DNA from: Escherichia phage IMM-001
DNA: 32,486 nt
Direction: 5' to 3' (one strand)
Sequence record: MF630922.1
Both the position numbers and the translations under genes were made by a program. Positions 2,746-30,651 of this stretch are shown piece by piece (position 1 is the stretch's first letter; each line of letters starts with the position of its first letter). The notes under the pieces were generated by a model. That model was not told the DNA's origin. It saw only the letters and a program-made list of their open reading frames with translations, and made no database searches.

Positions 2746-3111
2746 ATGAAATTAACAAAGTTACAAAGAGATGAACTAAAGTTTAAGCTAGGTGGATTCT
2801 GCGCATACTGCGGCTGCGAACTCGGTGATAAGTGGCATGCTGACCATATGAAGCCAGTAATCAGGTATGATGGTAAAATGGTGCACGATGAGCTTGATAA
2901 TATTTCGAACCTTGTCCCGGCGTGCCACGCTTGCAATCTGCATAAGCACTGCAATAGTGTGGAGGATTACCGGAGAATTATTGACGATGGTAGGCGGGAG
3001 TTTTTGGCATCCGGCAAGGGTAAGGCGCTCGTTCGCATGGGGCTGGTTGATATGAAGATGGATGATATTGTGTTCTGGTTCGAGAAGTTTGAGAAATTGA
3101 ATAAGATTTAA
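2746..3111 (+). CDS. HNH endonuclease (121 aa)
   Basis: Cys pairs CAYCGC and CHACNLHKHC with HADH...N...H spacing typical of HNH nucleases; RBS aaggtg. Confidence 0.8.
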   Translation: MKLTKLQRDELKFKLGGFCAYCGCELGDKWHADHMKPVIRYDGKMVHDELDNISNLVPACHACNLHKHCNSVEDYRRIIDDGRREFLASGKGKALVRMGLVDMKMDDIVFWFEKFEKLNKI

Positions 3112-3662: not shown

Positions 3663-3902
3663 ATGTTCGGATTAAACGAGGCGCATTTCAATGCGGTCAA
3701 GAAGCAGGCTAAAAAGCTTAACGATGATTACTCTAAGTTATCACCAAAAGAGCGAAAGAATGACAAGCTAGTTGCTGCGCTAATATCAGGTTTATGGGAG
3801 CCAGTATTTACTATTATCAGTCGAGACCGCTTCGTTTGGGTGGCTGGATATTTGAAGGGTCGCGTTGGCCATGATGAGAATGGGAATAGCCTTTATGAAT
3901 AA
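3663..3902 (+). CDS. hypothetical protein (79 aa)
   Basis: ORF downstream of cassette copy 3. Confidence 0.45.
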   Translation: MFGLNEAHFNAVKKQAKKLNDDYSKLSPKERKNDKLVAALISGLWEPVFTIISRDRFVWVAGYLKGRVGHDENGNSLYE

Positions 3903-4134
3903 GATTAAGTCATTAATGTTTAAGGTTGGAATCCTACATAAGCATAAATATAGATTATTTCGACGCATAAATTGGTATGAGGACGAATATCAGGATGGGT
4001 GCAGGACAAAACTAATCTGTACAGTTTGCGGGAAGATTTTTAACTCAAAGGTTGACCTAATGGTTTGCAAAAGCACGCTGGATTTCATTAGATATGAAAA
4101 AGAGATTGCATCACTTAGGGGTTTTAATGGATAA
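3895..4134 (+). CDS. hypothetical Cys-rich small protein (79 aa), possible zinc ribbon
   Basis: Internal ATG 3895 overlapping upstream stop; CRTKLICTVCGKIF...C cysteine pattern. Confidence 0.4.
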   Translation: MNKIKSLMFKVGILHKHKYRLFRRINWYEDEYQDGCRTKLICTVCGKIFNSKVDLMVCKSTLDFIRYEKEIASLRGFNG

Positions 4135-4426
4135 GTTTATTGAATGCGTAGTATACACCTTATGCATCACTCTCGTTTTTTGCTCATTGATGATTAGCTT
4201 TGGTGTGCTGTTTAGAATCATTTAGGACAAAATCCTTGCATCACTGACCGGAAAGTATTAGTATGTACCTAGTAGCACAAAAGGCCACTAAGTGGCAACG
4301 GCGCACGGAGCGAAACACAAAGTCCATAGCTCACTAAGCAGCGTACATGGCAAAATCGGTCGAGAAACTCGACGCTGGATGCGTAACCAGCAATCTTTCA
4401 ATAGCGAAATCGCTACTTAAAGATTT

Positions 4427-4502
4427 GTTCTGCTGGCGTAACAGGATAACGCAAAGACCTCCTAAGTCTTAGTTACTGGTTCGAGTCCAGTGCGGAACAC
4501 CA
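4427..4502 (+). tRNA. tRNA-Arg, anticodon CCU (reads AGG), 76 nt with encoded CCA
   Basis: Hand-folded cloverleaf: acceptor gttctgc/gcggaac with one G-U, D stem gcgt/acgc, anticodon stem aagac/gtctt, loop ctCCTaa, variable agtt, T stem actgg/ccagt, T loop ttcgagt, discriminator A. Confidence 0.85.
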
Positions 4503-4518
4503 ATTAAGGAGATTCATT

Positions 4519-4701
4519 ATGTGGGACGTTAAGCTTTCAATCCGCTTAATGGGTCGAAGCTGTAAGAATTGCCAGCAAGAATTTATCGCGTCGGTTGCCG
4601 CTGAGTCCTCAGAGGAAGCGGTAGCGAAAGTTAAGGTAATGTCGGGAGCCGACCCTGATTACCACAAATTCCTAGTAGCTTACGTTCGTGAGCGAAAGTA
4701 A
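4519..4701 (+). CDS. hypothetical small protein (60 aa)
   Basis: Strong RBS aaggag 7 nt upstream, immediately after the tRNA. Confidence 0.5.
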   Translation: MWDVKLSIRLMGRSCKNCQQEFIASVAAESSEEAVAKVKVMSGADPDYHKFLVAYVRERK

Positions 4702-4754
4702 AAGAAGTTCTACTCTCTGGTTGTTTCATCTCTCTCGTTGTTGTTCGACACTTC

Positions 4755-4778
4755 GCTCTCTTCTTGAGGGCTTTTTTA
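4755..4778 (+). terminator. Rho-independent terminator
   Basis: Stem gctctc/gagggc (one G-U), loop ttctt, then T6. Confidence 0.6.
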
Positions 4779-4787
4779 GTGTTTGTG

Positions 4788-4816
4788 TTGACAATAATCA
4801 ACGGGTGCATTAGCAT
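4788..4816 (+). promoter_or_regulatory. Sigma70-like promoter (TTGACA, 17 nt, TAGCAT)
   Basis: Perfect -35 hexamer, weaker -10; upstream of 4858 gene. Confidence 0.45.
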
Positions 4817-4857
4817 TAACTCATCTGGGCGACCCACTAACCAGAAGGAGATTTAAA

Positions 4858-5061
4858 ATGATGACATTAAAAGCAGTATACAAAGACGGCAGCGAGCAGA
4901 TTATTGAAGTTAAAAGAGTTGGCTACGTGCAAGGTTCTCGACTTGTTGACTTCGTTGATTGCGATGGTCCAGGTCAGTTCTTCATGGAGGACCGAGTATT
5001 GTCAGTTTATGTGATGAATTCAGCCGGCAGCACCGTTGGGAAATACCAGCTAGCGGATTGA
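4858..5061 (+). CDS. hypothetical small protein (67 aa)
   Basis: RBS aaggag; followed by terminator. Confidence 0.5.
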   Translation: MMTLKAVYKDGSEQIIEVKRVGYVQGSRLVDFVDCDGPGQFFMEDRVLSVYVMNSAGSTVGKYQLAD

Positions 5062-5071
5062 GTTGCTATCA

Positions 5072-5095
5072 AGCCCCTTAATTGGGGCTTTTTTA
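5072..5095 (+). terminator. Rho-independent terminator
   Basis: agcccc-ttaatt-ggggct then T6. Confidence 0.7.
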
Positions 5096-5106
5096 CGTCT
5101 GCAATA

Positions 5107-5115
5107 TGCTATAAT
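5107..5115 (+). promoter_or_regulatory. Extended -10 promoter element (TGcTATAAT) upstream of terminase genes
   Basis: TGn + TATAAT 27 nt upstream of the terS-like start; no clear -35. Confidence 0.35.
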
Positions 5116-5142
5116 GCTAACCTGAACAAAAGGAGGACGAAA

Positions 5143-5667
5143 ATGAAAGACGAAAACTTCAGCAGCACAGCACAAGAAAAGGTTAGCTCTGGAAACTTTA
5201 AAGCCATGTACAACAAAAAGTATTCTGACATTACAACGCTAGCCAAGAACCGAATTATGACACCAGAGCAGCTATTTGACATTGCTGTGAAATACTTCTC
5301 TTGGGCAGAAGACCAGGCAATCAAGGCAATTGAAACCGCTAGCTTCCAGGGTGTTGTCACTGAAAACCTGGTGCACAAGCCTAGAGTATTCACGCTAACT
5401 GGATTCTGCCTTTACTGCGGCGTCACCCATAGCGCCATCGAAAAATGGAGGAAGTCTGCTGGTTATGACGAGGTAATTGCGTTCATTGATTCCGTTATTC
5501 GTGAGCAGAAATACCAGCTAGCAGCATCTGGCATTGTTAACCCAGGCATGATTTCCAAAGAACTTGGCATCGACAAGCCACAGGAGATTAACATCACCAG
5601 CACATCTTCAGCTAATGACGTCGACACAATGAAAGAAGCGCTGGAGTCGGTAATTAGTAAACTGTAA
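5143..5667 (+). CDS. putative terminase small subunit (174 aa)
   Basis: Position directly upstream of large terminase, size, RBS aaaggagg; no motif check possible. Confidence 0.5.
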   Translation: MKDENFSSTAQEKVSSGNFKAMYNKKYSDITTLAKNRIMTPEQLFDIAVKYFSWAEDQAIKAIETASFQGVVTENLVHKPRVFTLTGFCLYCGVTHSAIEKWRKSAGYDEVIAFIDSVIREQKYQLAASGIVNPGMISKELGIDKPQEINITSTSSANDVDTMKEALESVISKL

Positions 5668-7323: not shown

Positions 7324-7696
7324 AGTGGCAACCAAATTAAAAGCTGTATATCTTGGCAACGAAGATGGAGAGTATCGTGGTTTCACCGTAGGAAATGAAT
7401 ATGAGGTTGGTAATTACATAGCTGAAAATGACTGCTTCGGTTCTTTTGATGATGATGGTTGTTATCTTTACATCAATAACGGAGCATTCCACAAGTTTCG
7501 AATCCACGATGAGAATGGCTACCTCAATTTAAAAACACAAGATGAATTTATCAGCAAAGAAAAGCAGTTAAAATACTACATCAATGGCGACGCTGTCACA
7601 AAATGTAAGTTCAATGACGTGCTGCTATGCGTAATGGGATTTCAGTCTGATGGGATTGACGCATCATCAATCAAGTTCGAAGTAAAATTCGAGTAA
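7324..7696 (+). CDS. hypothetical protein (124 aa from GTG 7324), moron-like between terminase and portal
   Basis: RBS gaggag before GTG; ORF-track ATG 7259 lies inside the promoter-like motif; flanked by cassette copy 4 and terminator. Confidence 0.45.
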
Positions 7697-10135: not shown

Positions 10136-10609
10136 ATGGCAATTCGTTCTGTAGCACTGGCAGGTATGGTAGCTGATACCTCCCTGTATAATATCGATGG
10201 CGCTTGTGTAGTTGGTGGCTCTGCTGCAATTCCTGTTGGTACTGTTGTTGGTGTTACGTCCGCTCAGCCTGTTGATGGGCACAAGGTAGTAGCTGCAACT
10301 GGTATTACCGCCGCTAACGTTCTTGGTGTTGTTGTTCGATCTCATTACGAGACTCCAGACGGCACAGCTCGCGTAAATGAAGCGGTTAACGTAATGACTT
10401 CTGGTCGTATCTGGGTTCGCACAACTCTTGATGCCGCCCCTGCATTTGGCGCTCCGGTTCTTGTTTCTGCAACTGGTGTTGTTGAGGAGGCTGGTGCTGT
10501 AGCGACTGGCTGGACCTTCGCTGGTGGCTTCATCCCTAACACTGGCACTAAGCCGCAAGACCTTAGCGTAGATGGCGCTCTGGTTGAAGTTCAGGTTAAA
10601 CAGAAGTAA
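10136..10609 (+). CDS. putative capsid decoration/cement protein (157 aa)
   Basis: Small Gly/Ala/Val-rich protein between scaffold and major capsid; position-based. Confidence 0.3.
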   Translation: MAIRSVALAGMVADTSLYNIDGACVVGGSAAIPVGTVVGVTSAQPVDGHKVVAATGITAANVLGVVVRSHYETPDGTARVNEAVNVMTSGRIWVRTTLDAAPAFGAPVLVSATGVVEEAGAVATGWTFAGGFIPNTGTKPQDLSVDGALVEVQVKQK

Positions 10610-14064: not shown

Positions 14065-14494
14065 AAACATTGGTGGGGTAGCTACATTTACGAATAGTAT
14101 TGCTGATTGGATTGATAGGGCTGATTCTAATGTGTCTGAAGTTGTGTCTGGCACTGTTATTAAAGCAGCTAACGCCATTGTTGATTTATCTCCCGTTGAT
14201 ACTGGTAGGTTCAAAGCCAACTGGCAGATTACCGCTAACTCACCAGCTGCGCAGTCCCTGAATGAGTACGATAAAACTGGTGGCGATACGAAAAGATATC
14301 TGGCAAGGCAAGCTCAAGCAGTTGCTAACTCACCAGCAACAAAGGTTATCTACATAACCAACAGGCTTGATTACGCTTCTGACCTTGAATACGGTGCATC
14401 GCAGCAAGCTCCGGCTGGTGTTCTTGGGGTTGTAAATATCAGGCTTGGACGGTACTTCGAAGAAGCTGTTGCTGAAACAAGGAGTAAACGATAA
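14048..14494 (+). CDS. putative neck/tail completion protein (148 aa)
   Basis: Position-based. Confidence 0.35.
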   Translation: MLPMARNIGGVATFTNSIADWIDRADSNVSEVVSGTVIKAANAIVDLSPVDTGRFKANWQITANSPAAQSLNEYDKTGGDTKRYLARQAQAVANSPATKVIYITNRLDYASDLEYGASQQAPAGVLGVVNIRLGRYFEEAVAETRSKR

Positions 14495-15959: not shown

Positions 15960-16274
15960 ATGGCAAAATTTAAACTTTCACTTAAGGCGCTTCCTGACTT
16001 TAAACTTCCAGTTAAGTTTCAGCTGGCTAATGGTGAAGATGCTGAAGTAGTACTAACAGTTAAGCACAAGAAATCATCTGAGTTGCAGGAGATTCTTAAT
16101 CGTGAAAACTTCAGCACTAAAGAATTGATTAGCGAAATCTGCTCTGACTGGGATTTAGAAGAGCCATTTAACGATGAAAACGTAGATGAGTTTGCAAACC
16201 TTTTTCCTGGCGCTGTTCCATCACTGATGGATAGCTACATGAAAGCGCTTGCAGGTCAGCGAGTAAAAAACTAA
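15960..16274 (+). CDS. tail assembly chaperone, lambda G-like (104 aa)
   Basis: Position before tape measure; ends with slippery heptamer. Confidence 0.6.
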   Translation: MAKFKLSLKALPDFKLPVKFQLANGEDAEVVLTVKHKKSSELQEILNRENFSTKELISEICSDWDLEEPFNDENVDEFANLFPGAVPSLMDSYMKALAGQRVKN

Positions 16275-16588
16275 AACGCGCAGTATACCTACAATACCAG
16301 TCGCCGCCAACGGATTCCGAACTTGAAGCTATAGGAATGAAACGTTCCGACTACGAAGGTGAAGAGCCCGAGGAGTTATTCTTCGATGAAACAATGATGC
16401 AAAGCTGGGATGTGTACTGTGCTATGTCAACACAATGGCGAGTAGGAGCTTGCGGCGCCACAGGTCTTGATTACAATTGCCTTCCATTCTTGTTCAAAGT
16501 CTATAAAATAGATGATGAAGAAATGGCACTTAACGATATCAGAATACTTGAGGCTAAAGCCTTAGATATGATGAACGCCAAGAAATAG
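15960..16588 (+). CDS. tail assembly chaperone GT-like fusion via putative -1 frameshift at A_AAA_AAC (16265..16271)
   Basis: The -1 frame is open from 16235 through 16588 and overlaps the end of the G-like ORF; the downstream ORF has no convincing RBS. Confidence 0.5.
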
Positions 16589-22162: not shown

Positions 22163-25100
22163 ATGGCGCAGGACATTAAAATATACGGCAGCAAGGGCGG
22201 TAGTTCTAAGCAGAAACAACCAGTAGAGCAGCCAGATAACTTGATATCTGTAAACAAGGTTAAGGTTTTGCTAGCTGTTTCTGATGGTGAAGTTGATAAC
22301 TCGTTCTCGCTTAAAGACCTGTATCTTGCTGACGTTCCGGTTCAGAACCAGAATGGCACATACAACTACGAGGGTGTGACAGCAGAATTTCGCCCTGGCA
22401 CGCAGAGTCAGGATTACATCGCCGGCCTCGAGGGTGCCAGCTCTGAGGTGCAGGTCAATAGGGAGATTACAAACTCAACGCCTTACATAATTGCCGTTAA
22501 CAACACTCAACTATCTGCGATTAGGGTTAAATTATACTGGCCTCGACTGATTAATCAGGAAAGTAACGGAGACCTGAACGGAACAACTTGCGAGTACGCT
22601 ATTGACTTATCTGTTGATGGCTCCACGTACAGTGAGTACACGCGAGGCGTAGCTAACGGCAAGACGACTAGCGGGTACGACAGGAGTATCAGGGTAAACC
22701 TTCCAGCTGAGTTTTCTAGCGCTCTTGTTAGGGTCCGTAAAATTACAGCAGACTCAGAAAGCTCTACTCTGGTTAACGGAATGCAAATTACGACCTATCA
22801 GGAAGTAATCGATGCTAAATTCCGTTATCCGCTTACAGCGCTGGTTTACGTTGAGTTTAGTTCGGACCTCTTCCCTAACGGAATCCCGGCCATCTCAATC
22901 AAAAAGAAGTGGAAGTTGATTCGCGTTCCGACTAACTATAACCCAGAGACAAGAACTTATAGCGGAACTTGGAACGGCACATTTAAGATGGCGTATTCAA
23001 ATAACCCAGCGTGGGTTCTTTACGACCTTGTAACTAACCAGCGATATGGGCTTGACCAACGCGAACTTGGTATCACAATTGATAAATGGGGGTTGTATGA
23101 AGCGGCGCAATTCTGTGACCAAATGGTACCAGACGGAAAGGGAGGTGTGGAGCCGCGTTACTTGTGTGATGTTGTAATTCAGCAAAAGGTTGAGGCATAC
23201 CAAGTCATCCGTGATATCTGTTCTATCTTCCGTGGGCTAACATTCTATGATGGTGAGCAGATAGGGATTGTTGTCGATAAGCCGCGCCAACCATCATACG
23301 TATTCACCAACGATAACGTTGTTGACGGGTTATTTAACAGGACTTTCGGAAGCGACAAATCGCTATACACAGTCGCTAACGTTCAGTTTGATGATGTTGA
23401 AAACTCATACCAGCAAGATGTAGAGCCAGTATTTGAGCTAGAGGCAACAAGGCGTTTTGGTTACAACCCGGTTGACCTTACCGCTATTGGCTGTACTCGC
23501 AGGAGTGAAGCAAACCGCCGTGGTCGTTGGTTGTTAAAGACAAACTTGCGCAGCGAGACGATAAGTTTCACCACAGGGCTAGAAGGTATGATCCCAATGA
23601 TTGGTGAGGTGATTGCGGTTAATGACCAGGCATGGTCTAGCAACTACACCTTAAACCTTTCTGGTCGTATCGAGTCTGTAAGTGGTTTGCAGGTTTTCGT
23701 GCCGTTTAAGATTGATGCTGCTGCCGGCGACAGGATTCTGATTAACAAGCCTGACGGAATGCCGGAATACAGGACTATTGCATCTGTATCTGAAGATGGA
23801 ATGACGCTGCAACTTAACACGGCGTTTAGCTTCAACCCTCAACCTGATACTGTATTTGCGATTGATAAGGAGAATCTTGCGCTTCAGCAATATGTTGTGA
23901 CCGGGATTCAAAAAGCAGACAGCGATGGAGATGATGCGTTCGGTTACAGTATTACAGCGGTTGAGTACGACCCGAACAAATACGACGAGATTGATTACGG
24001 CGTAAACATTCAGGACAGGCCAACGTCAATCGTTGAGCCAGATACATTACTGGCACCTGAGAATGTTCAGGTAAGCAGCTACAGTAAGGTTGTGCAGGGT
24101 ATTTCAGTTGAGACTATGGTCATCACCTGGGATAAGGTTCAGTACGCTAAGACATACACAGTTCAGTGGCGTAAGGAGAATGGAAACTGGATTAATGTAC
24201 CGCGCACTGCAAACACAGAAGTTGATATTGAAGGTATTTACGCAGGCATTTATCAGGTTCGTGTAAGGGCTGTTTCTGATACTGAAAACGTATCTGCGTG
24301 GTCTGAAATTGTTTCAGCTAGCCTTACAGGTAAGATTGGAACTCCTTCTGCACCTACAGTTATTACGGCTTCAGATGACGAGGTGTTTGGCATTATGGTT
24401 AAGTGGGGATTCCCTGACAACTCAACTGATACGTCATACACTGAATTGCAGCAAGTTGCCGACAATGGTGATGGCACTTACACGCCAGAGAACGCAAGCT
24501 TGCTAACATTAGTTCCTTACCCGAGCTACGAGTATTGGCACACTACGCTACCGGCAGGTAAGGTTATCTGGTACAGGGCGCGACTAATCGACAAGATTGG
24601 TAACGTCTCACCATGGACTGATTTTGTAATGGGCATGGCAAGCGATGACGTTTCGGCAATCATTGGTGAAATTAAGGTTGATATAGAGAACTCGGAGGGG
24701 TTCAAGTATCTTCAGCAGAATGCCATTGAGTCAAACGGAGCTATTCAGGCGCAAGCAGAATCAATCATCGAGAACACCCTGGCGAATGATGGTGACGTTC
24801 GTCGAATGACTAAGGAAAACAGCAAGAGGAAGGCTGAATTTATTCAGGCAGTCAATCTTATCGCTGATGAAGAAAGGGCTCGCGTAGAGGCCCTGACTCA
24901 GCTTAAGGCACAGATTGATGATGAGATTGTAGCTTCGTTAACAAGGATTGATACTGCGCTAGCTGAGGAAACTCAAGCAAGGACCACTGCGGACACTGCT
25001 TTATCCGCAAGGCTTGGCGAGAATGAAGCTGCATTAAATGAGAAGCTTGACACATACGTTACCGCTGATTCAATTGGCGCTCAGTATGGAATTAAGCTCG

Positions 25101-25549
25101 GTCTTACTTACAATGGAGTTCAGTACAGTTCTGGGATGAGCATGGAGCTAACAGGTTCTGATGGTAATGTTCGTAGCCAGGTCATCTTTGACGCTAACAG
25201 GTTCGCGATCAGTAATGGTGTTAGTTCCGGTTCCGGTCAGTGGTCATTGCCTTTCGTAGTTGAGAATAATCAGGTCTTCATTCAGAGCGCAGTAATTCAG
25301 GACGGTTCAATCACTAACGCGAAGATTGGTAACAGGATTCAATCTAACAACTACGTGGCTGGATCTCAAGGATGGGCGATTGACAAGGCAGGTAGCGCCG
25401 AGTTTAGTAACGCAACTGTAAGGGGGAATTTATACGCAAATAACGGTAACTTTGCATTTAACGGAACAAACAACACTGTACAGATTAACAACAACGGAAT
25501 TACAGTTAATTTACCGAATGGTGGCAGGGTTGTAGTTGGAGTGTGGTAA
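22163..25549 (+). CDS. central tail fibre / host specificity protein, lambda J-like (1128 aa)
   Basis: Size and position after I-like gene; long multi-domain protein. Confidence 0.8.
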   Translation: MAQDIKIYGSKGGSSKQKQPVEQPDNLISVNKVKVLLAVSDGEVDNSFSLKDLYLADVPVQNQNGTYNYEGVTAEFRPGTQSQDYIAGLEGASSEVQVNREITNSTPYIIAVNNTQLSAIRVKLYWPRLINQESNGDLNGTTCEYAIDLSVDGSTYSEYTRGVANGKTTSGYDRSIRVNLPAEFSSALVRVRKITADSESSTLVNGMQITTYQEVIDAKFRYPLTALVYVEFSSDLFPNGIPAISIKKKWKLIRVPTNYNPETRTYSGTWNGTFKMAYSNNPAWVLYDLVTNQRYGLDQRELGITIDKWGLYEAAQFCDQMVPDGKGGVEPRYLCDVVIQQKVEAYQVIRDICSIFRGLTFYDGEQIGIVVDKPRQPSYVFTNDNVVDGLFNRTFGSDKSLYTVANVQFDDVENSYQQDVEPVFELEATRRFGYNPVDLTAIGCTRRSEANRRGRWLLKTNLRSETISFTTGLEGMIPMIGEVIAVNDQAWSSNYTLNLSGRIESVSGLQVFVPFKIDAAAGDRILINKPDGMPEYRTIASVSEDGMTLQLNTAFSFNPQPDTVFAIDKENLALQQYVVTGIQKADSDGDDAFGYSITAVEYDPNKYDEIDYGVNIQDRPTSIVEPDTLLAPENVQVSSYSKVVQGISVETMVITWDKVQYAKTYTVQWRKENGNWINVPRTANTEVDIEGIYAGIYQVRVRAVSDTENVSAWSEIVSASLTGKIGTPSAPTVITASDDEVFGIMVKWGFPDNSTDTSYTELQQVADNGDGTYTPENASLLTLVPYPSYEYWHTTLPAGKVIWYRARLIDKIGNVSPWTDFVMGMASDDVSAIIGEIKVDIENSEGFKYLQQNAIESNGAIQAQAESIIENTLANDGDVRRMTKENSKRKAEFIQAVNLIADEERARVEALTQLKAQIDDEIVASLTRIDTALAEETQARTTADTALSARLGENEAALNEKLDTYVTADSIGAQYGIKLGLTYNGVQYSSGMSMELTGSDGNVRSQVIFDANRFAISNGVSSGSGQWSLPFVVENNQVFIQSAVIQDGSITNAKIGNRIQSNNYVAGSQGWAIDKAGSAEFSNATVRGNLYANNGNFAFNGTNNTVQINNNGITVNLPNGGRVVVGVW

Positions 25550-25553
25550 ATGA

Positions 25554-25579
25554 TTAGGCCCCTTTTGGGGCCTTTTCTT
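25554..25579. terminator. Bidirectional rho-independent terminator between convergent genes
   Basis: aggcccc-tttt-ggggcct with T-runs readable on both strands. Confidence 0.7.
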
Positions 25580-26542
25580 TTAGTAGAAGTTTGGGATAAA
25601 TGGCAGAGCCATTGATATGTTTGTGTCGAATGGGAACTGCGCCCCAGTCTGTGTTGAATAGTTCCCTATTACAGTTCCAGGTACAGCCATTACGGCGCCT
25701 CCAGACATACAGACACCCTTGTACCTTAAGTTGTTATACCCACCAGTAACCCTTGTTGTAGCTCCACACCTGAGTAGTGGAAAGAACCCCCCATTTATTG
25801 ACTGGAAACCATTGGTTATTTGTATAAAACCACTAAGAACGAAAGGTCTCCTGACGCTTGAGAAGACAATCTGACCAGAACTGTTAGACATTGTAAGGCC
25901 GTGGCCAGCTATTGGAGGCTCATTTCTGAATATCACTAATTGGACGTAAGTGCTTGCTGCCACGTCATCTATGCCGCCGTAATTTATATCGCGACACCAT
26001 ATTGTACTCCCGTCACTCTCGAGAGAGACGTTTGGGTTATCCCATTTACCAAACGGGATTCCGCTAACTGGAAGTGAAGCCGCGCCGTTAACCTGAATCC
26101 CACCAACCCATGCCGCCGACATTAACCTAGAATTGCTTGATATTGCCAAAAAGTCAGTTGAGTTCTCAACCAGTATGCCAGGGCTTGACGACGATGAAGC
26201 ATCAAGTATCTCAAAGCAATTACCAGCGAAGTCAATAATTCGACCTCTGGCACCATTAAAGTTACTAAGCGTTATCCTGCCAACTCCGTCATTTACCTTC
26301 TGAAACCCGTTAATATAATAAACTTCAGGTACAACATCATAGGCGTCAACGTGGACGGCCTTTGTTGGCAAGCAGAATGCGGTAGAGCCTGGTGACATGG
26401 TTAAACCAAAGTCCCATGATGATGCTGGCGTCGAAAGTCCATTAGTATTTATTGATCCAGTCACAGCAGGTGCTCTTAGTCCAGCGGTAATCTCCATCGC
26501 TGGCCTTCCGTCATTTAGGTCAATCAATATACCTTGCGGCAT
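25580..26542 (-). CDS. putative receptor-binding protein / tail fibre (320 aa)
   Basis: Minus-strand gene after J-like gene, TAATG-coupled to the upstream lipoprotein gene; ATG 26542 has AAGGAG 8 nt upstream (ORF-track GTG 26551 sits inside that RBS). Confidence 0.4.
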   Translation of the reverse strand: MPQGILIDLNDGRPAMEITAGLRAPAVTGSINTNGLSTPASSWDFGLTMSPGSTAFCLPTKAVHVDAYDVVPEVYYINGFQKVNDGVGRITLSNFNGARGRIIDFAGNCFEILDASSSSSPGILVENSTDFLAISSNSRLMSAAWVGGIQVNGAASLPVSGIPFGKWDNPNVSLESDGSTIWCRDINYGGIDDVAASTYVQLVIFRNEPPIAGHGLTMSNSSGQIVFSSVRRPFVLSGFIQITNGFQSINGGFFPLLRCGATTRVTGGYNNLRYKGVCMSGGAVMAVPGTVIGNYSTQTGAQFPFDTNISMALPFIPNFY

Positions 26543-26787
26543 TATTTCCACTCCTTAGATCCGTGGTCAGCAACTGAACCACCGTAACCGCCGCCAACCT
26601 TGCTCTCAATACCAGCGTAGCGCACATCAACTTCACCAGCCGGTACAACTACACCATTTTTCCATTTAGCAACGCACACGCCGTTTGCTTGCGTTGCACA
26701 CCAACCGTCAGGACGAGGAGCAGATGAACAACCTACCATCATGATTGCTGCTGCGGCGATGATTGAAAGTTTGATTAAGTTAGTCAT
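26542..26787 (-). CDS. small lipoprotein (81 aa), candidate superinfection-exclusion factor
   Basis: Signal peptide [20 protein letters not shown] with lipobox-like MVGC; RBS aagga. Confidence 0.65.
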
Positions 26788-26828
26788 TTACGTATTCCTT
26801 ATGAGGTTCGTTTCTTTTCGATGGAGTA

Positions 26829-26870
26829 ACTATATCTCATTCTTGAGATTTGTCTTTAGCTATTCGTGCT
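26829..26870 (-). promoter_or_regulatory. Conserved IR promoter-like cassette copy 8, variant (AGCACGAATAGCTAAAG, 22 nt, TATAGT), overlapping the MTase stop
   Basis: Motif family on minus strand upstream of the lipoprotein gene. Confidence 0.5.
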
Positions 26871-27578
26871 GTTTATTCTATTTTTTGCGACATTAAAATA
26901 CTCAGTATCTAGCTCTATACCTATAAATGACCTGTTTGTGTTTACGCATGCTACGCCAGTTGTTCCGCTACCCATGCAGTTATCAAGAACTAAGTCACCC
27001 TCGTCAGTGTATGTTTTTATTAGGTACTCCATCAAGGAAACCGGCTTTTGCGTTGGGTGTAGTGATGATTTCTGCTTGTCGCTAGCCATCTTTATCACAT
27101 CCCTTGGGTATCTCATTGTTGAATCATAAGATAGTGATTCGAAATTCTGATCTCCATAGTTTGTTCCATTGTCGTTCCTCTTTGTTGCTGTTTTTCTTTT
27201 GTGACCCTCTGTCATTTGCGGGTTGTATTTGTAAGGTTTTTTGTAGAAAACAAGTATGTTTTCATGAGCCTTCATCGGAGCTCTCTTGGCATTAAGGTGT
27301 CCGGTTGCATGTGTTTTTTCCCATATCCACTCATGCTTCAACATTTCAAGATTGGAGCACCCGAGTACTTTATCGAATGGTGTTTGCGCCGTAAGTACAA
27401 TTGCACCCTTGCACACCCTCCTGTATTGAGTCCATAGCAAGTCAAGGTCTATAACTGAATCCCACTTGTTTCTGGTTGTTCCGTATGGTAAGTCGCACAA
27501 AATCATGTCAATTGAATTGTCTGGGATTTCTTTCATAAGCTCAAGGCAGTCGCCATTCATTAATTTAATCATTTCCAT
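26856..27578 (-). CDS. orphan DNA methyltransferase, beta-class, DPPY motif (240 aa; may start at second ATG 27572)
   Basis: Motif IV ILCDLPYG near N-terminus and motif I VLDNCMGSGTTG near C-terminus; no adjacent restriction enzyme gene. Confidence 0.8.
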   Translation of the reverse strand: MEMIKLMNGDCLELMKEIPDNSIDMILCDLPYGTTRNKWDSVIDLDLLWTQYRRVCKGAIVLTAQTPFDKVLGCSNLEMLKHEWIWEKTHATGHLNAKRAPMKAHENILVFYKKPYKYNPQMTEGHKRKTATKRNDNGTNYGDQNFESLSYDSTMRYPRDVIKMASDKQKSSLHPTQKPVSLMEYLIKTYTDEGDLVLDNCMGSGTTGVACVNTNRSFIGIELDTEYFNVAKNRINSTNS

Positions 27579-27603
27579 CTCTCATTGCGTTTTTGTTGTG
27601 ATG

Positions 27604-27646
27604 ATTATACATAACCAAGCAAGGGTGTCTTTAGCTATTCGTGCTA
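27604..27646 (-). promoter_or_regulatory. Conserved IR promoter-like cassette copy 9, variant (TAGCACGAATAGCTAAAG, 22 nt, TATAAT)
   Basis: Motif family on minus strand upstream of the MTase gene. Confidence 0.55.
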
Positions 27647-27745
27647 CTGGTTACGCGTAACCGATGTAAATCGATGTATACCATATGCATCCGCTGGAAA
27701 TCGTATACGCATTGTTACGCCTAGTTACGCCATAGTTACATTAAA

Positions 27746-27806
27746 ATATCTATATATATCAACCTTTTACTCTTATTATTATTATTATATATATTACTGT
27801 GTATAT
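27746..27806 (+). repeat. AT-rich repeat, copy B, containing (TTA)5 microsatellite at 27773..27787
   Basis: Shares core with 229..297; lies in the 535-bp ORF-free region between divergent blocks. Confidence 0.8.
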
Positions 27807-28113
27807 CATGTAACCACTGTTCTGGAGTGTTCCGGCTATAATTTTTATATCATGTGATTTTATACAGTATTTCGCGGCACATATACCAATGCACCACCCG
27901 CTAAAATCGGTATACACGGTATACGCATTATTTACATTGAGCTATAGCGGCCCAGCCGGAGCAGTTAAGCGTAACTAATGCCAATGTCTACACGTAATTA
28001 CAAAATTATACGCGTATACTTGATTAATTAATCGGGGATACCAATTAGACGTGGTGACAAGCGTTCTGCATAATTATCACATCGAAAGCAAACAACCATA
28101 GAGAGATAGAGAA

Positions 28114-28308
28114 ATGCCATACTTCATCATTAAAGAGAAAAAAAACGCACTGTTCGGAGATTGCTACTTCGGCGGTGAGGCTGGATATACAATTCACAAA
28201 TCTGAAGCGGACCGATTCGATACCAAGGAAGAGGCCAAGTCTATTCTGACTGGATATTTCACTGAGGAAGATTTGAAAGCTGTTAAGATTGTTAAAATTA
28301 AGGATTGA
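28114..28308 (+). CDS. hypothetical small protein (64 aa)
   Basis: First ORF of rightward block; RBS agagag. Confidence 0.45.
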   Translation: MPYFIIKEKKNALFGDCYFGGEAGYTIHKSEADRFDTKEEAKSILTGYFTEEDLKAVKIVKIKD

Positions 28309-28311
28309 ACC

Positions 28312-29283
28312 ATGACATTTACCGTATACACCAACGACGAACTAACAAACGAATCCTATCACGAAGAGCAGAGCCACATCTCTGGCTCTTCACTGGCTGA
28401 GATTCTCGCCACTTCACCAGCAAAATGGAAATTCAAGCAGCGCGATAACTCAAGCGCAGCACTTAAGTTTGGCACTCTAAGTCACTGCATGATGCTTGAG
28501 CGTGAGGCGTTCGATTCAACCTACATGCGAGCCACTGACTTTGATGAAGTTGAGGGGTTAATCACAAGCCAAACCGCGTTATCGGCAGCACTTAAGAAAG
28601 TTGGAGTTTCTGGTACGTCAGGAAAAGGCTATAACGAGCTAGTAGAGATGATGTACAAGTGCGGTGAGGATTGGCCTGTTAAGTGGCTAATTGAACAGCA
28701 GGAGAGCGCTGAGGCGTTAATTAGTGGCAAGGAGTTGGTTAGTGCGAAAGATTACGATAAGGTAATCGCAATGCGCGAGGTTCTGACCAATATCCCAGCT
28801 TACGATGCAGTTATTAATTCACCAACAGCGCAGAAAGAGCTATCAATCTTTGGTGAGATTCTTGGATGCGGCGTTAAGGTTAGACTTGACCATGTGGATG
28901 TTGTTGATGGCGCGGTTTACATTACTGACTACAAAACCACAGCAGACGCAAGTCCTCGAGGATTTGGTAAGTCGGCTTATGACCATGGATACCTTTGCAA
29001 GATGGCACTCCAGCGCGATTTGTTTGTTAAGGCGTTTAGCGAGAAGCGTAAGGTTGTAGTTCGTCTTCTGGCGCAGGAGAAGACAGAGCCTTATTTGCCA
29101 ATGTGCTACACGCTCACAGATGAGCAGCTTCACATTGGTCGCCTTCAATATATGGAAGCACTTGCCACGTACAAGCAGTGTAAGGAACTTGATGTTTGGC
29201 CTGGATACAGTAATGGGATTACAGAGCAAGATTTAATGATTCCTGAATGGGTAGCAAAACAATACGGAGAGATATTAAAATGA
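28312..29283 (+). CDS. PD-(D/E)xK family nuclease, RecB-like domain (323 aa); likely recombination exonuclease
   Basis: VRLDHVDVVD and YITDYKTT resemble nuclease motifs II and III (hhD / D-Y-K); sits upstream of Erf. Confidence 0.6.
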   Translation: MTFTVYTNDELTNESYHEEQSHISGSSLAEILATSPAKWKFKQRDNSSAALKFGTLSHCMMLEREAFDSTYMRATDFDEVEGLITSQTALSAALKKVGVSGTSGKGYNELVEMMYKCGEDWPVKWLIEQQESAEALISGKELVSAKDYDKVIAMREVLTNIPAYDAVINSPTAQKELSIFGEILGCGVKVRLDHVDVVDGAVYITDYKTTADASPRGFGKSAYDHGYLCKMALQRDLFVKAFSEKRKVVVRLLAQEKTEPYLPMCYTLTDEQLHIGRLQYMEALATYKQCKELDVWPGYSNGITEQDLMIPEWVAKQYGEILK

Positions 29284-29744
29284 ATAAAGATTGCTGGCAG
29301 ACACCATTAGAATTATTTAATCAACTAAATGATAAGTACAATTTCCAGGTTGACGCGTGCGCAAGTCAAGAGAATGCTTTGTGTGAGCATTTTTGGACCG
29401 AAGATGATGACTGTTTGCAGCAGGATTGGGGTGATGAAAATGATTTTGTTTGGTGCAACCCACCATACAGCAACCCATTGCCATTTGTCGAAAAGTGCCA
29501 GGAGTACGGTTACGCTGTTATGCTTTTAAATCAGGACACATCAACGAAATGGGCTAAGATAGTTTTTGAAAAATCCTCAAAGGTAATACTGTTATCAGAT
29601 AGGGTTAGGTTTATAAACCCATCGACGCTCGAGATTGGGAAGTCAAACCCAAAATGCCAGATGATTGTAGTGTTCGATAATAGTGTGGAGCATGGGCCTG
29701 TCATAAGGTGGTGCTCAATAAAAGATATTCACAAAAACATCTAA
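29280..29744 (+). CDS. Dam-like phage N6-adenine DNA methyltransferase (154 aa)
   Basis: N-terminal CWQTP and catalytic NPPY motifs; ATG 29280 overlaps upstream stop. Confidence 0.7.
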   Translation: MNKDCWQTPLELFNQLNDKYNFQVDACASQENALCEHFWTEDDDCLQQDWGDENDFVWCNPPYSNPLPFVEKCQEYGYAVMLLNQDTSTKWAKIVFEKSSKVILLSDRVRFINPSTLEIGKSNPKCQMIVVFDNSVEHGPVIRWCSIKDIHKNI

Positions 29745-29788
29745 ATAGCACTAATTGCTAAAGATAAAATTAACAGGTGTGGTATGAT
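29744..29788 (+). promoter_or_regulatory. Conserved IR promoter-like cassette copy 6 (AATAGCAC-taa-TTGCTAAA, 22 nt, TATGAT), overlapping the Dam-like stop
   Basis: Motif family; leader accacatcaacaacgagatgg. Confidence 0.55.
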
Positions 29789-29819
29789 TACCACATCAAC
29801 AACGAGATGGTTTAAGCAA

Positions 29820-29963
29820 ATGAAAGTATTTAAAAGTAAAATATGTAGCTACATTAAAATGGCCATTAATCGAAACGATGATATTATAAAAACAATAGAT
29901 ATAAAACCTGGCGACGAGGTTTTTGTCATAATCGAAAAGTCTATAGCGTTAGAACTTGCATAA
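29820..29963 (+). CDS. hypothetical small protein (47 aa, below threshold)
   Basis: ATG downstream of cassette copy 6; the in-frame upstream ATG 29784 lies in the promoter-like element. Confidence 0.3.
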   Translation: MKVFKSKICSYIKMAINRNDDIIKTIDIKPGDEVFVIIEKSIALELA

Positions 29964-30000
29964 TACATCTTAAAAAATTCAGAAAAACTAGAGGATTGAT

Positions 30001-30651
30001 ATGAACATTTCAGAATCATGCAAATCAATTTTAAACGCACTGCACACTGCTAAATCGCTATTTGCGAAGGCTGAGAAGTCAAAGCAAAACTCGCACTTAA
30101 AGAACAAGTACGCCACTTTAGAAGACGTTTTAGCAGCAGTTGAGCCAGGATTGGATGAGTGCGGTTTGGTAATGTTCCAAAGCGTAATAGATGATGAATC
30201 AACGAACCGAATAAAGGTTGAAACTAAGCTGTTTCATGCAGAATCTGGAGAATGGGTTAGCTTCTTAATGATTGTCCCAATCAGTAAGCAAGATGCTCAA
30301 GGTTACGGCTCTGCTCTTACATATGCTCGACGCTATGGCATTACAGCAGCCTTAGGGCTTAGCCAGGCTGATGATGATGGTAATCTTGCAGCTAAGGGTG
30401 TTAAAGACTTCAAGCGAGAACTTGAGAAGTGCAATACGCTCGATGAGCTTCGTAATGTCTGGAAGGAGGCTAAACAGTCACTTGATGCGGCAGGATGGAA
30501 GGTTTTCGAACCACACATTATCGAGCGCAAGGCAGAGATTCAGGCAAATGAAATGAATGGCTTCAACCCAGCCACGCCTAAGAAAGTTGCAGAAAAAAGT
30601 AGTGATAAAGAAAAGATTGAAGTAGAATCACAACAAATCGATACATTCTAA
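30001..30651 (+). CDS. erf: Erf-family single-strand annealing protein (216 aa)
   Basis: GSALTYARRYGITAALG hallmark and NSHLKNKYATLEDVL N-terminal motif; RBS gagga. Confidence 0.75.
   Translation: MNISESCKSILNALHTAKSLFAKAEKSKQNSHLKNKYATLEDVLAAVEPGLDECGLVMFQSVIDDESTNRIKVETKLFHAESGEWVSFLMIVPISKQDAQGYGSALTYARRYGITAALGLSQADDDGNLAAKGVKDFKRELEKCNTLDELRNVWKEAKQSLDAAGWKVFEPHIIERKAEIQANEMNGFNPATPKKVAEKSSDKEKIEVESQQIDTF

Follow-up and report, generated by a model that had tools for sequence, protein, structure and literature searches.

A previously undescribed family of structured RNAs spans the phage family Drexlerviridae. The comparisons given here establish that it exists, what shape it takes, which strand encodes it and how it is distributed. 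One member lies in the window, that is, the whole stretch of 32,486 nucleotides of Escherichia phage IMM-001 DNA that was analysed (MF630922.1), which belongs to a virulent T1/Rtp-like E. coli siphophage of the subfamily Braunvirinae. The RNA is ~156 nt long, with predicted ends at about 4271 and 4426, and runs straight into a tRNA-Arg gene that begins at 4427. The first-pass annotation, made from the letters alone, had singled out 4135-4426 as a 290-bp segment free of open reading frames (ORFs) and containing several hairpins. This observation is partly confirmed: it was genuine and, apart from a supposed repeat motif and a probably coding 5' third, understated, as it overlooked the promoter inside the segment, the single RNA family shared across the Drexlerviridae and the lack of any tie between this RNA and the tRNA.

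A blastn search with the segment returned 88 phage records, and in nearly all of these the common part (~4235-4345) carries no annotation; the same search gave no DNA match to any phage record for 4135-4234. The nearest records were TR1, TR2, TR3, CY1 and Rao1, with ~87% identity over 72% of a 1.3-kb query. Twelve Braunvirinae relatives were fetched for comparison with the window, giving an alignment of 13 sequences.

The 5' core shared by the whole family (4272-4319, + strand), located by covariation and by matches to the two covariance models described below (R1 and R2), is composed of GUAGCACAAAAGG, helix P1, AACG, helix P2 and an A-rich linker. P1 pairs 4284-4288 with 4292-4296 around a UAA loop, AACG occupies 4297-4300, and P2 pairs 4301-4304 with 4310-4313 around the loop ACGGA, with G4301-A4313 unpaired in the window. 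P3 (4322-4351), a Braunvirinae-specific hairpin with an internal loop taken from the RNAalifold consensus, has the outer pairs G4322-C4351, C4324-G4350, C4325-G4349, A4326-U4348 and U4327-A4347 and the inner pairs G4329-C4342, C4330-G4341 and U4331-A4340. An AAUCG(G) motif follows and leads into P4 (GUCGAG 4359-4364 with CUCGAC 4368-4373, loop AAA; motif and hairpin together 4354-4373), and then P5 (4374-4391) pairs GCUGG 4374-4378 with CCAGC 4387-4391 around the loop AUGCGUAA. The last hairpin, P6 (4392-4425), was found by an inverted-repeat scan; its 16-nt arms are 88% complementary and it ends 1 nt before the tRNA. P6 is restricted to the window/TR/AN_ECEAS/ECH1 clade, and ECH1 keeps its base (AAUCUU/AAGAUU) but has a different apical stem (CUAG/CUAG). 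Three of these elements had already been seen: the stems GCCAC(T)/(A)GTGGC (4284-4296), GTCGAG/CTCGAC (4359-4373) and TAGCGA/TCGCTA (within 4392-4425) of the first-pass annotation are present and correspond to P1, P4 and the tip of P6. The predicted fold of 4271-4426 has a free energy of -42.2 kcal/mol, compared with -32.4 +/- 3.4 for shuffled sequences (z = -2.94), and one of 200 shuffles was as good.

Covariation supports this architecture. The RNAalifold consensus of the 13 Braunvirinae sequences contains 27 pairs, nine of them with compensatory double changes and almost none broken. For P1, P2 and P3 taken together, 99.1% of the alignment cells are paired, against 14-44% when the partners are slid by 1-3 columns; five pairs have changed on both sides, and none of 500 shuffles reached the covariation score. 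P3 by itself is paired in 100% of cells, with one pair going from G-C to A-U and another appearing as U-G, U-A or C-G. P4 and P5 are likewise 100% paired in the Braunvirinae (22-47% with slid partners), with five double-change pairs. P1 is found as GCCAC/GUGGC, CCAUC/GAUGG and CUAGC/GCUAG, P4 as GUCGAG/CUCGAC, GGUCG/CGACC and GGCUG/CAGCC, and P5 as GCUGG/CCAGC and CCCGG/CCGGG, and all three stems reported in the first pass are kept in the relatives through compensatory changes, well past what chance would give; the lack of stem conservation in relatives that the first pass named as refuting was thus not seen. Several helices contain G-U pairs, which on the opposite strand would be C-A mismatches, and it is therefore the transcript of the + strand that is under selection. 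The relatives carry optional hairpin modules of 0-150 nt between P3 and P4.

Pairings beyond these helices were considered and rejected. A pseudoknot between the P2 loop ACGGA and a UCCGU in P3 did not hold when inspected by eye: in the window the change from UCCGU to UCCAU goes with its P3 partner and not with the loop, and in DTL the loop has changed without compensation. A helix between the 5' GUAG and a CUAC after P2 occurs only in Rtp-type sequences and not in the window clade, so it is no family feature, and for pairing of the CCGUAA loop with AACGG or with the P2 loop no covariation was seen. The P5 hairpin has two further peculiarities. In JulesPiccard (locus L004, about 1800-1895) P4-P5 is duplicated in tandem, with AAUCAUAA instead of AGCCGUAA as the second loop. 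The P5 loop GCGUAAC (4381-4387 in the window) also recurs in the D-arm of the tRNA-Arg (4435-4442, GGCGUAAC), and in TR3 the 8-mer GGCGUAAC is found in both places; this likeness may be due to chance or may be a trace of the recombination event by which the tRNA was acquired.

Outside the Braunvirinae the plan is shared despite almost no alignable sequence: a promoter, (C)GU[AGU][AU]ACA[UA]AAGAG, a P1 of unrelated sequence, AACG, P2, a variable middle and a final hairpin bearing NCC-GUAA(GA) on the 3' side of its loop. The family core can be written as GUnnACAnAAGAG, P1, AACG, P2, a variable middle and a hairpin with CCGUAA in the loop. In the window, GUnnACAnAAGAG-P1-AACG-P2 comes directly after the promoter and upstream of a gene for a 60-aa CxxC protein (4519-4701, + strand; a match to phrog_2919, whose function is not assigned), hereafter the anchor gene. 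P5, with its loop AUGCGUAA, represents in the window the CCGUAA hairpin seen across the family, whose loop has NCC/NGC-GUAA on its 3' side; Tls, T1, Webervirus and others share this loop motif. Direct reading of the sequences showed the equivalent hairpin in the Braunvirinae, Vilniusvirus, the Tls-like phages, most Webervirus loci and T1, and a few clades have variants such as CCUGUAAG or CUAUAAGA.

The distribution of the family was followed with the anchor protein, for which tblastn found 341 Drexlerviridae records from phages of Escherichia, Klebsiella, Salmonella, Citrobacter, Cronobacter and other hosts; a single scan of IMG/VR with the same protein gave 45 loci. Model R1 was built from the subfamily of the window, and model R2 from 20 non-redundant sequences of distant clades only, with no Braunvirinae among them. 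In these 20 sequences P1 and P2 are 97.2% paired (20-57% when slid), eight of the nine pairs are double-changed, 58 cells are compensatory and none of 500 shuffles reaches the score; across 32 distinct family-wide sequences, in an alignment that was fitted to the model, 98.2% of cells are paired and 86 are compensatory. Run over the 32-kb window on both strands with filters off, R2 placed its best match at 4272-4319 (+), at 14.2 bits and an E value of 0.015, with no other credible match. It also found JulesPiccard (22.5 bits) and ECH1 (20.1 bits) at the correct position, gave a single match when the whole T1 genome was searched on both strands with filters off (between gp58 and gp57, at 7624-7676, +, 47.4 bits) and one match of 46-74 bits in each of 39 non-Braunvirinae loci. 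R1 scored 87-109 bits on Rtp-like genomes and 86.8 bits over 4271-4353 in the window. With R2 and R1 together, the RNA was found in all 45 of the anchor-defined loci, one copy in each. An exact 16-mer scan of IMG/VR gave 18 matches, of which six were true members, all Rtp-like genomes, and the rest were due to chance.

No known family accounts for the segment. The covariance-model search proposed in the first pass, run with Rfam 15 over 3800-4900 at E <= 10, returned the tRNA and no other family, the remaining matches scoring 16-20 bits against gathering scores of 43-55, and in six relatives at E <= 1 only tRNAs were found inside the element. The segment had been thought to hold a small RNA, a tRNA precursor leader or a degenerate second tRNA. 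The first two descriptions both fit, and the third is rejected: ARAGORN calls a single tRNA, and the Rfam tRNA model at E <= 10 matches only 4427-4499. A supposed partial copy of an inverted-repeat motif, AGTAGCACAAAAGG, proved to be a chance likeness (four matches at <=3 mismatches in the window, with 3.3 expected), and the sequence is the conserved 5' end of the RNA rather than a repeat copy.

The RNA is preceded by a sigma-70-type promoter (4236-4264, + strand), identified by conservation, with the -35 element TTGCAT at 4236-4241, a 17-bp spacer and the -10 element TAGTAT at 4259-4264. In the Braunvirinae alignment the same position holds TTGCAT-17-TAATAT/TAACAT, and an invariant GUAG follows 7-8 nt after the -10; an A-rich stretch lies ahead of the window promoter. 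Other clades have a near-consensus TTGACG-17-TAnnAT with the TG of an extended -10, and a regular expression for the promoter motif matched in 44 of the 45 IMG/VR loci. The RNA core starts at 4272, 8 nt after the -10, and transcription would start at about A4271. An octamer in the spacer, CTGAnnGG (4244-4251), is invariant in all related loci; it adjoins the -10 in most clades and is 7 bp further upstream in the Braunvirinae. Because of this difference in spacing, its conservation is not explained by RNA polymerase contacts alone, and it may be the binding site of a regulator.

Every confirmed or annotated gene near the segment is on the + strand. Two small genes lie upstream (3663-3902 and ~3898-4134), the second of them ending with its stop at 4134 and here called the upstream gene, and further upstream, among small early genes, there is an HNH endonuclease gene at 2746-3111 (Pfam HNH, E 8e-7). 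The tRNA-Arg(CCU) downstream of the RNA (4427-4502; ARAGORN, and Rfam RF00005 at 58.9 bits) has its CCA encoded and is followed by the anchor gene. A terminator scan found an intrinsic terminator, GCTCTC-TTCTT-GAGGGC plus T6, at about 4755-4779 (+), which closes the unit; in the window a second small unit lies between it and the small terminase gene terS (GP3_package; start 5143, +). All 12 relatives share the order upstream gene, ~80 nt, conserved core, at least ~84 nt, tRNA-Arg, small gene, terS, and ARAGORN found the tRNA-Arg in each of them; its anticodon is CCT in the clade of the window and TCT in the others.

The 5' third of the segment is probably of a different nature. As had been stated, the ORF list contains no ORF of 60 aa or more between the upstream gene and the tRNA. 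The description of the whole 290 bp as ORF-free is probably wrong for 4135-4225, the 3' part of a probable small hydrophobic ORF (4127-4225, +, 32 aa, MDKFIECVVYTLCITLVFCSLMISFGVLFRII; 43 aa if started from ATG 4094), the non-coding element being confined to 4236-4426. Its ATG at 4127 overlaps the stop of the upstream gene and has AGGGG 6 nt upstream. In six relatives a conserved and mostly unannotated 21-aa hydrophobic micro-ORF, MSELTIWFIAGLIAWGYFLIA, occupies the same place and ends ~20 nt before the -35. Positions 4135-4225 probably encode a small membrane peptide, and they are outside the RNA.

Conservation of the RNA extends to phages in which its downstream neighbour is different. The slot after it holds a tRNA-Arg(CCU), a tRNA-Arg(UCU), a tRNA-Ser (Vilniusvirus), unrelated ORFs or nothing. 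A protein gene or nothing stands in the place of the tRNA in the Tempevirinae (Tls, atuna) and Klebsiella phage K50, T1 keeps the RNA though it has no tRNA at that position, and in Webervirus the anchor gene follows the RNA directly. Different clades share a homologous linker behind the last hairpin, which reads ACUCAUUCAAAG before the tRNA in Rtp and AACCAUUCAGGAG before an AUG in Tls. Because of these homologous linkers and the position of the RNA directly before the anchor gene in Webervirus, the ancestral RNA would have been the 5' untranslated region (5' UTR) of the anchor gene, with cargo later inserted between the hairpin and the Shine-Dalgarno (SD) sequence. In PCEc3 (locus L007, 981-1082) and CEB_EC3a (L042) an extra element of ~100 nt stands right after the tRNA-Arg; it is annotated as a 102-nt 'tRNA-Ile', which ARAGORN does not call.

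The unit ends in a similar way throughout the family. A strong terminator follows the anchor gene, sometimes with one more small ORF between, in 44 of the 45 loci (locus L059 ends too early to include it), and in T1 the terminator of the unit is annotated. Immediately behind a strong terminator, all Drexlerviridae clades have an extended -10 promoter (TGnTATAAT) and AGGAGG, with the start of terS ~50 nt later; the junction is at ~5071-5145 in the window, beyond the second small unit, and at 1925-2000 in locus L058. The -35 of the terS promoter would overlap the T-tract of the terminator. With a terminator of its own and a separate promoter for terS, the RNA therefore heads a short self-contained operon.

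As to function, the reading we favour, and to which we give an even chance, is that the segment consists of a promoter and a non-coding RNA of ~156 nt that works as an RNA in its own right and is released by RNase P. Host RNA polymerase would start at ~4271, transcribe the RNA, the tRNA-Arg(CCU) and the 60-aa CxxC gene, and stop at the terminator hairpin (4755-4771). RNase P cleaves at the 5' end of tRNAs, and a cut at 4426/4427 would set the upstream RNA free as a separate molecule; its 3' end, P6 plus a 1-nt tail, should protect it from 3' exonucleases. Early in infection the single-stranded motifs (the 5' GUAGCACAAAAGG, AACG, AAUCGG and the loop GCGUAA), held in place by the hairpins, would then most likely be offered to a partner, either a protein or another RNA; invariant and set between covarying hairpins, they look like recognition sites for such a partner.

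The layout of the locus argues for this reading. A discrete RNA is expected in the Braunvirinae and Vilniusvirus, where a tRNA adjoins it, and in other clades a GC-rich hairpin with a U-tract ends the RNA, so that three of the four configurations (tRNA-Arg, tRNA-Ser and a terminator-like end) predict a discrete RNA with a 3' hairpin. Moreover, in the lineages in which processing would separate the RNA from the mRNA downstream, the RNA shows enlargement, with P3, the optional modules and P6, rather than decay. The variation of the downstream cargo favours independence of the RNA from it, and we infer the transcription start, release by RNase P, stability and an action independent of the cargo.

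Several observations weigh against it. In one group, the Tls-like phages and Webervirus, the RNA leads on to an SD and an AUG with no obvious 3'-end signal; there it looks like a plain 5' UTR, which is probably the ancestral state. In the window, cleavage by RNase P might be impeded by a hairpin that ends only 1 nt from its site. A consensus promoter scanner did not call the window promoter, in which the -35 matches at three of six positions and the whole at seven of 12, so it is assigned from conservation and not from consensus strength. No partner has emerged either: blastn against 5,426 E. coli genomes gave no match, which speaks against host mimicry or a prophage copy, and the anchor protein has no recognisable RNA-binding fold or signature. 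Its AlphaFold2 model (predicted local distance difference test, pLDDT, 87.8) is beta-beta-alpha-beta with a CxxC loop; it has no significant match by Foldseek against PDB, by sequence against PDB or in Pfam, the Pfam and PDB sequence hits, to HMA and thioredoxin-like CxxC proteins, being non-significant. The MGRxCxxC loop is reminiscent of metal-binding HMA domains. In the library searched, no description of this RNA, no transcriptome of a T1-like phage and no expression data for any of these phages were found.

The nearest precedents for a stable RNA beside a phage tRNA-Arg are rnaC and rnaD of the virulent coliphage T4 (species 1 and 2), non-coding RNAs which, like this RNA, are small and lie beside a tRNA-Arg in one transcription unit. 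They are matured by the tRNA-processing machinery of the host. However, rnaC and rnaD lie downstream of the tRNA-Arg, while the RNA described here lies upstream, has a promoter and also occurs without any tRNA. There is no homology: with filters off, the best R1 match in T4 68000-75000 scored 7.2 bits and was not at rnaC/rnaD. A second comparison is with E. coli RNAs of the 3'ETS-leuZ type, in which a functional RNA is excised from a tRNA precursor during maturation, and the window RNA would also be a by-product of tRNA maturation. Those RNAs act as sponges, are short with little structure, and derive from 3' or internal spacers in operons of the host, whereas this one comes from a 5' spacer, is highly structured and phage-encoded, and is kept where no tRNA follows.

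A possible but less probable explanation is that the RNA is a cis-regulatory 5' leader that controls its own short operon, for example through the CxxC protein or a host factor, by changing how stable its transcript is, how it is processed, whether it terminates prematurely or how the first ORF is translated. Without exception the RNA stands at the very 5' end of the unit, ahead of the same small protein gene, and the position in Webervirus and the linker homology (AACCAUUCAGGAG/ACUCAUUCAAAG) suggest that a 5' UTR was the ancestral state. Some clades have as their last hairpin a 9-bp GC stem that encloses a covarying 3-bp helix (GGU/ACC, GGA/UCC or GAA/UUC) and is followed by a U-tract; in several of them the next SD is ~10 nt away, as in an attenuator. 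In others, the window included, the last hairpin has 5 bp and no U-tract. The U-tract, however, comes and goes among phages with the same downstream gene, neither the window nor any of the Braunvirinae has a terminator or an SD after the RNA, and no consistent antiterminator pairing was seen by eye; a terminating riboswitch or attenuator was rejected as a definition of the family, since the U-tract hairpin is absent from the window and the Braunvirinae and lineage-specific elsewhere. In addition, RNase P would part the RNA from the anchor mRNA in the lineage of the window, yet the RNA has been kept and enlarged there, and the anchor protein shows no RNA-binding signature. The clades with a hairpin and U-tract recall StxS, which is made from P_R' of Stx phages as a short transcript and functions as a small RNA (PMC7547250), in that both are short promoter-proximal transcripts ending at a terminator upstream of late genes. 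StxS differs in relying on Q/tR' antitermination in temperate lambdoid phages, while these phages are virulent; the two are not homologous, and the window version of the RNA has no terminator.

It is rather improbable that the RNA acts in processive antitermination like the put sites of HK022, the nascent transcript binding its own polymerase, alone or with a phage protein, which then reads through terminators. The put RNA is ~70 nt long, with two long stem-loops and a triplex, and is present in two copies per genome (PMC9378689). Both are folded RNAs at the start of a phage sigma-70 transcript with terminators downstream; this RNA is predicted to begin at +1 of a strong sigma-70 promoter, as putL does (PMC9378689), and the late genes that are read rightward come after it. 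Several annotated intrinsic terminators among the late genes of T1, moreover, have an SD and an ATG within ~10 nt; because this leaves no room for a promoter before the next SD, late transcription must read through many of them. Such terminators were seen in T1 (locus L083) at 10545-10585, 14235-14285, 16107-16152, 16445-16485 and 28568-28610. In some clades the RNA is also followed closely by a terminator-like hairpin, much like the arrangement of P_R' and tR' in lambda. If this mechanism were true, it would provide for read-through of the unit terminator and of about ten terminators in the packaging, head and tail genes, and would explain late expression in phages that have neither an RNA polymerase of their own nor a known late regulator.

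Against antitermination, terS has its own conserved extended -10 promoter after the unit terminator in every clade, so that the unit looks self-contained, and an early promoter close to the consensus would not time the expression of late genes. The window and T1 each have one copy, in contrast to putL and putR of HK022, and the stems are short hairpins of 4-6 bp, unlike the two long stem-loops of put. R2 found no homology in the HK022 immunity region (23000-30500), which contains the put sites, with a best score of 6 bits. Lambdoid nut sites combine a boxA with a 5-bp hairpin carrying a GNRNA pentaloop; the P2 loops GCGGA, ACGGA (the window) and GCGAUA bear only a loose resemblance to boxB loops, judged by eye, and no boxA-like sequence (CGCUCUUA-like) is present in 4236-4520, the whole window having 27 matches against 32 expected. 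The terminators after the capsid and tail genes may also simply be leaky and so set protein ratios.

Two other explanations are very unlikely. A DNA-level element such as a pac site or a replication origin, or a small protein gene inside 4236-4426, could be proposed from the closeness to terS and from short frames of 24 aa (4263-4337) and 42 aa (4292-4420), but the G-U pairs make the selection strand-specific, the terminal repeat of T1, and hence its pac, is at 1-2800, 7.6 kb from the element, the open frames shift between relatives, and the compensations in the stems would give radical amino-acid changes. Least credible of all is a passive leader with incidental hairpins, the region serving only as promoter and spacer for the tRNA directly downstream; this is contradicted, since six helices covary, the single-stranded motifs are conserved, and the RNA is kept in phages without a tRNA there, T1 included.

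T1-like phages are among the most frequently isolated coliphages and phages of Klebsiella and Salmonella, and they serve in therapy cocktails and belong to the BASEL reference collection. Yet almost nothing is known of how their genes are regulated, and their genomes are annotated as protein genes with an occasional tRNA. One unannotated, strongly conserved structured RNA is now placed at a fixed position in them, behind a promoter that seems to rank among the strongest in the genome. It constitutes a new RNA family for Rfam and for genome annotation, and a defined object for experiments. The slot that follows it is an insertion hotspot for tRNA-Arg, tRNA-Ser and small ORFs, which is useful for understanding as well as engineering high-expression sites in these phages. 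For the biology of these phages, the RNA is a candidate for an early host-directed RNA or for a missing control element of late transcription.

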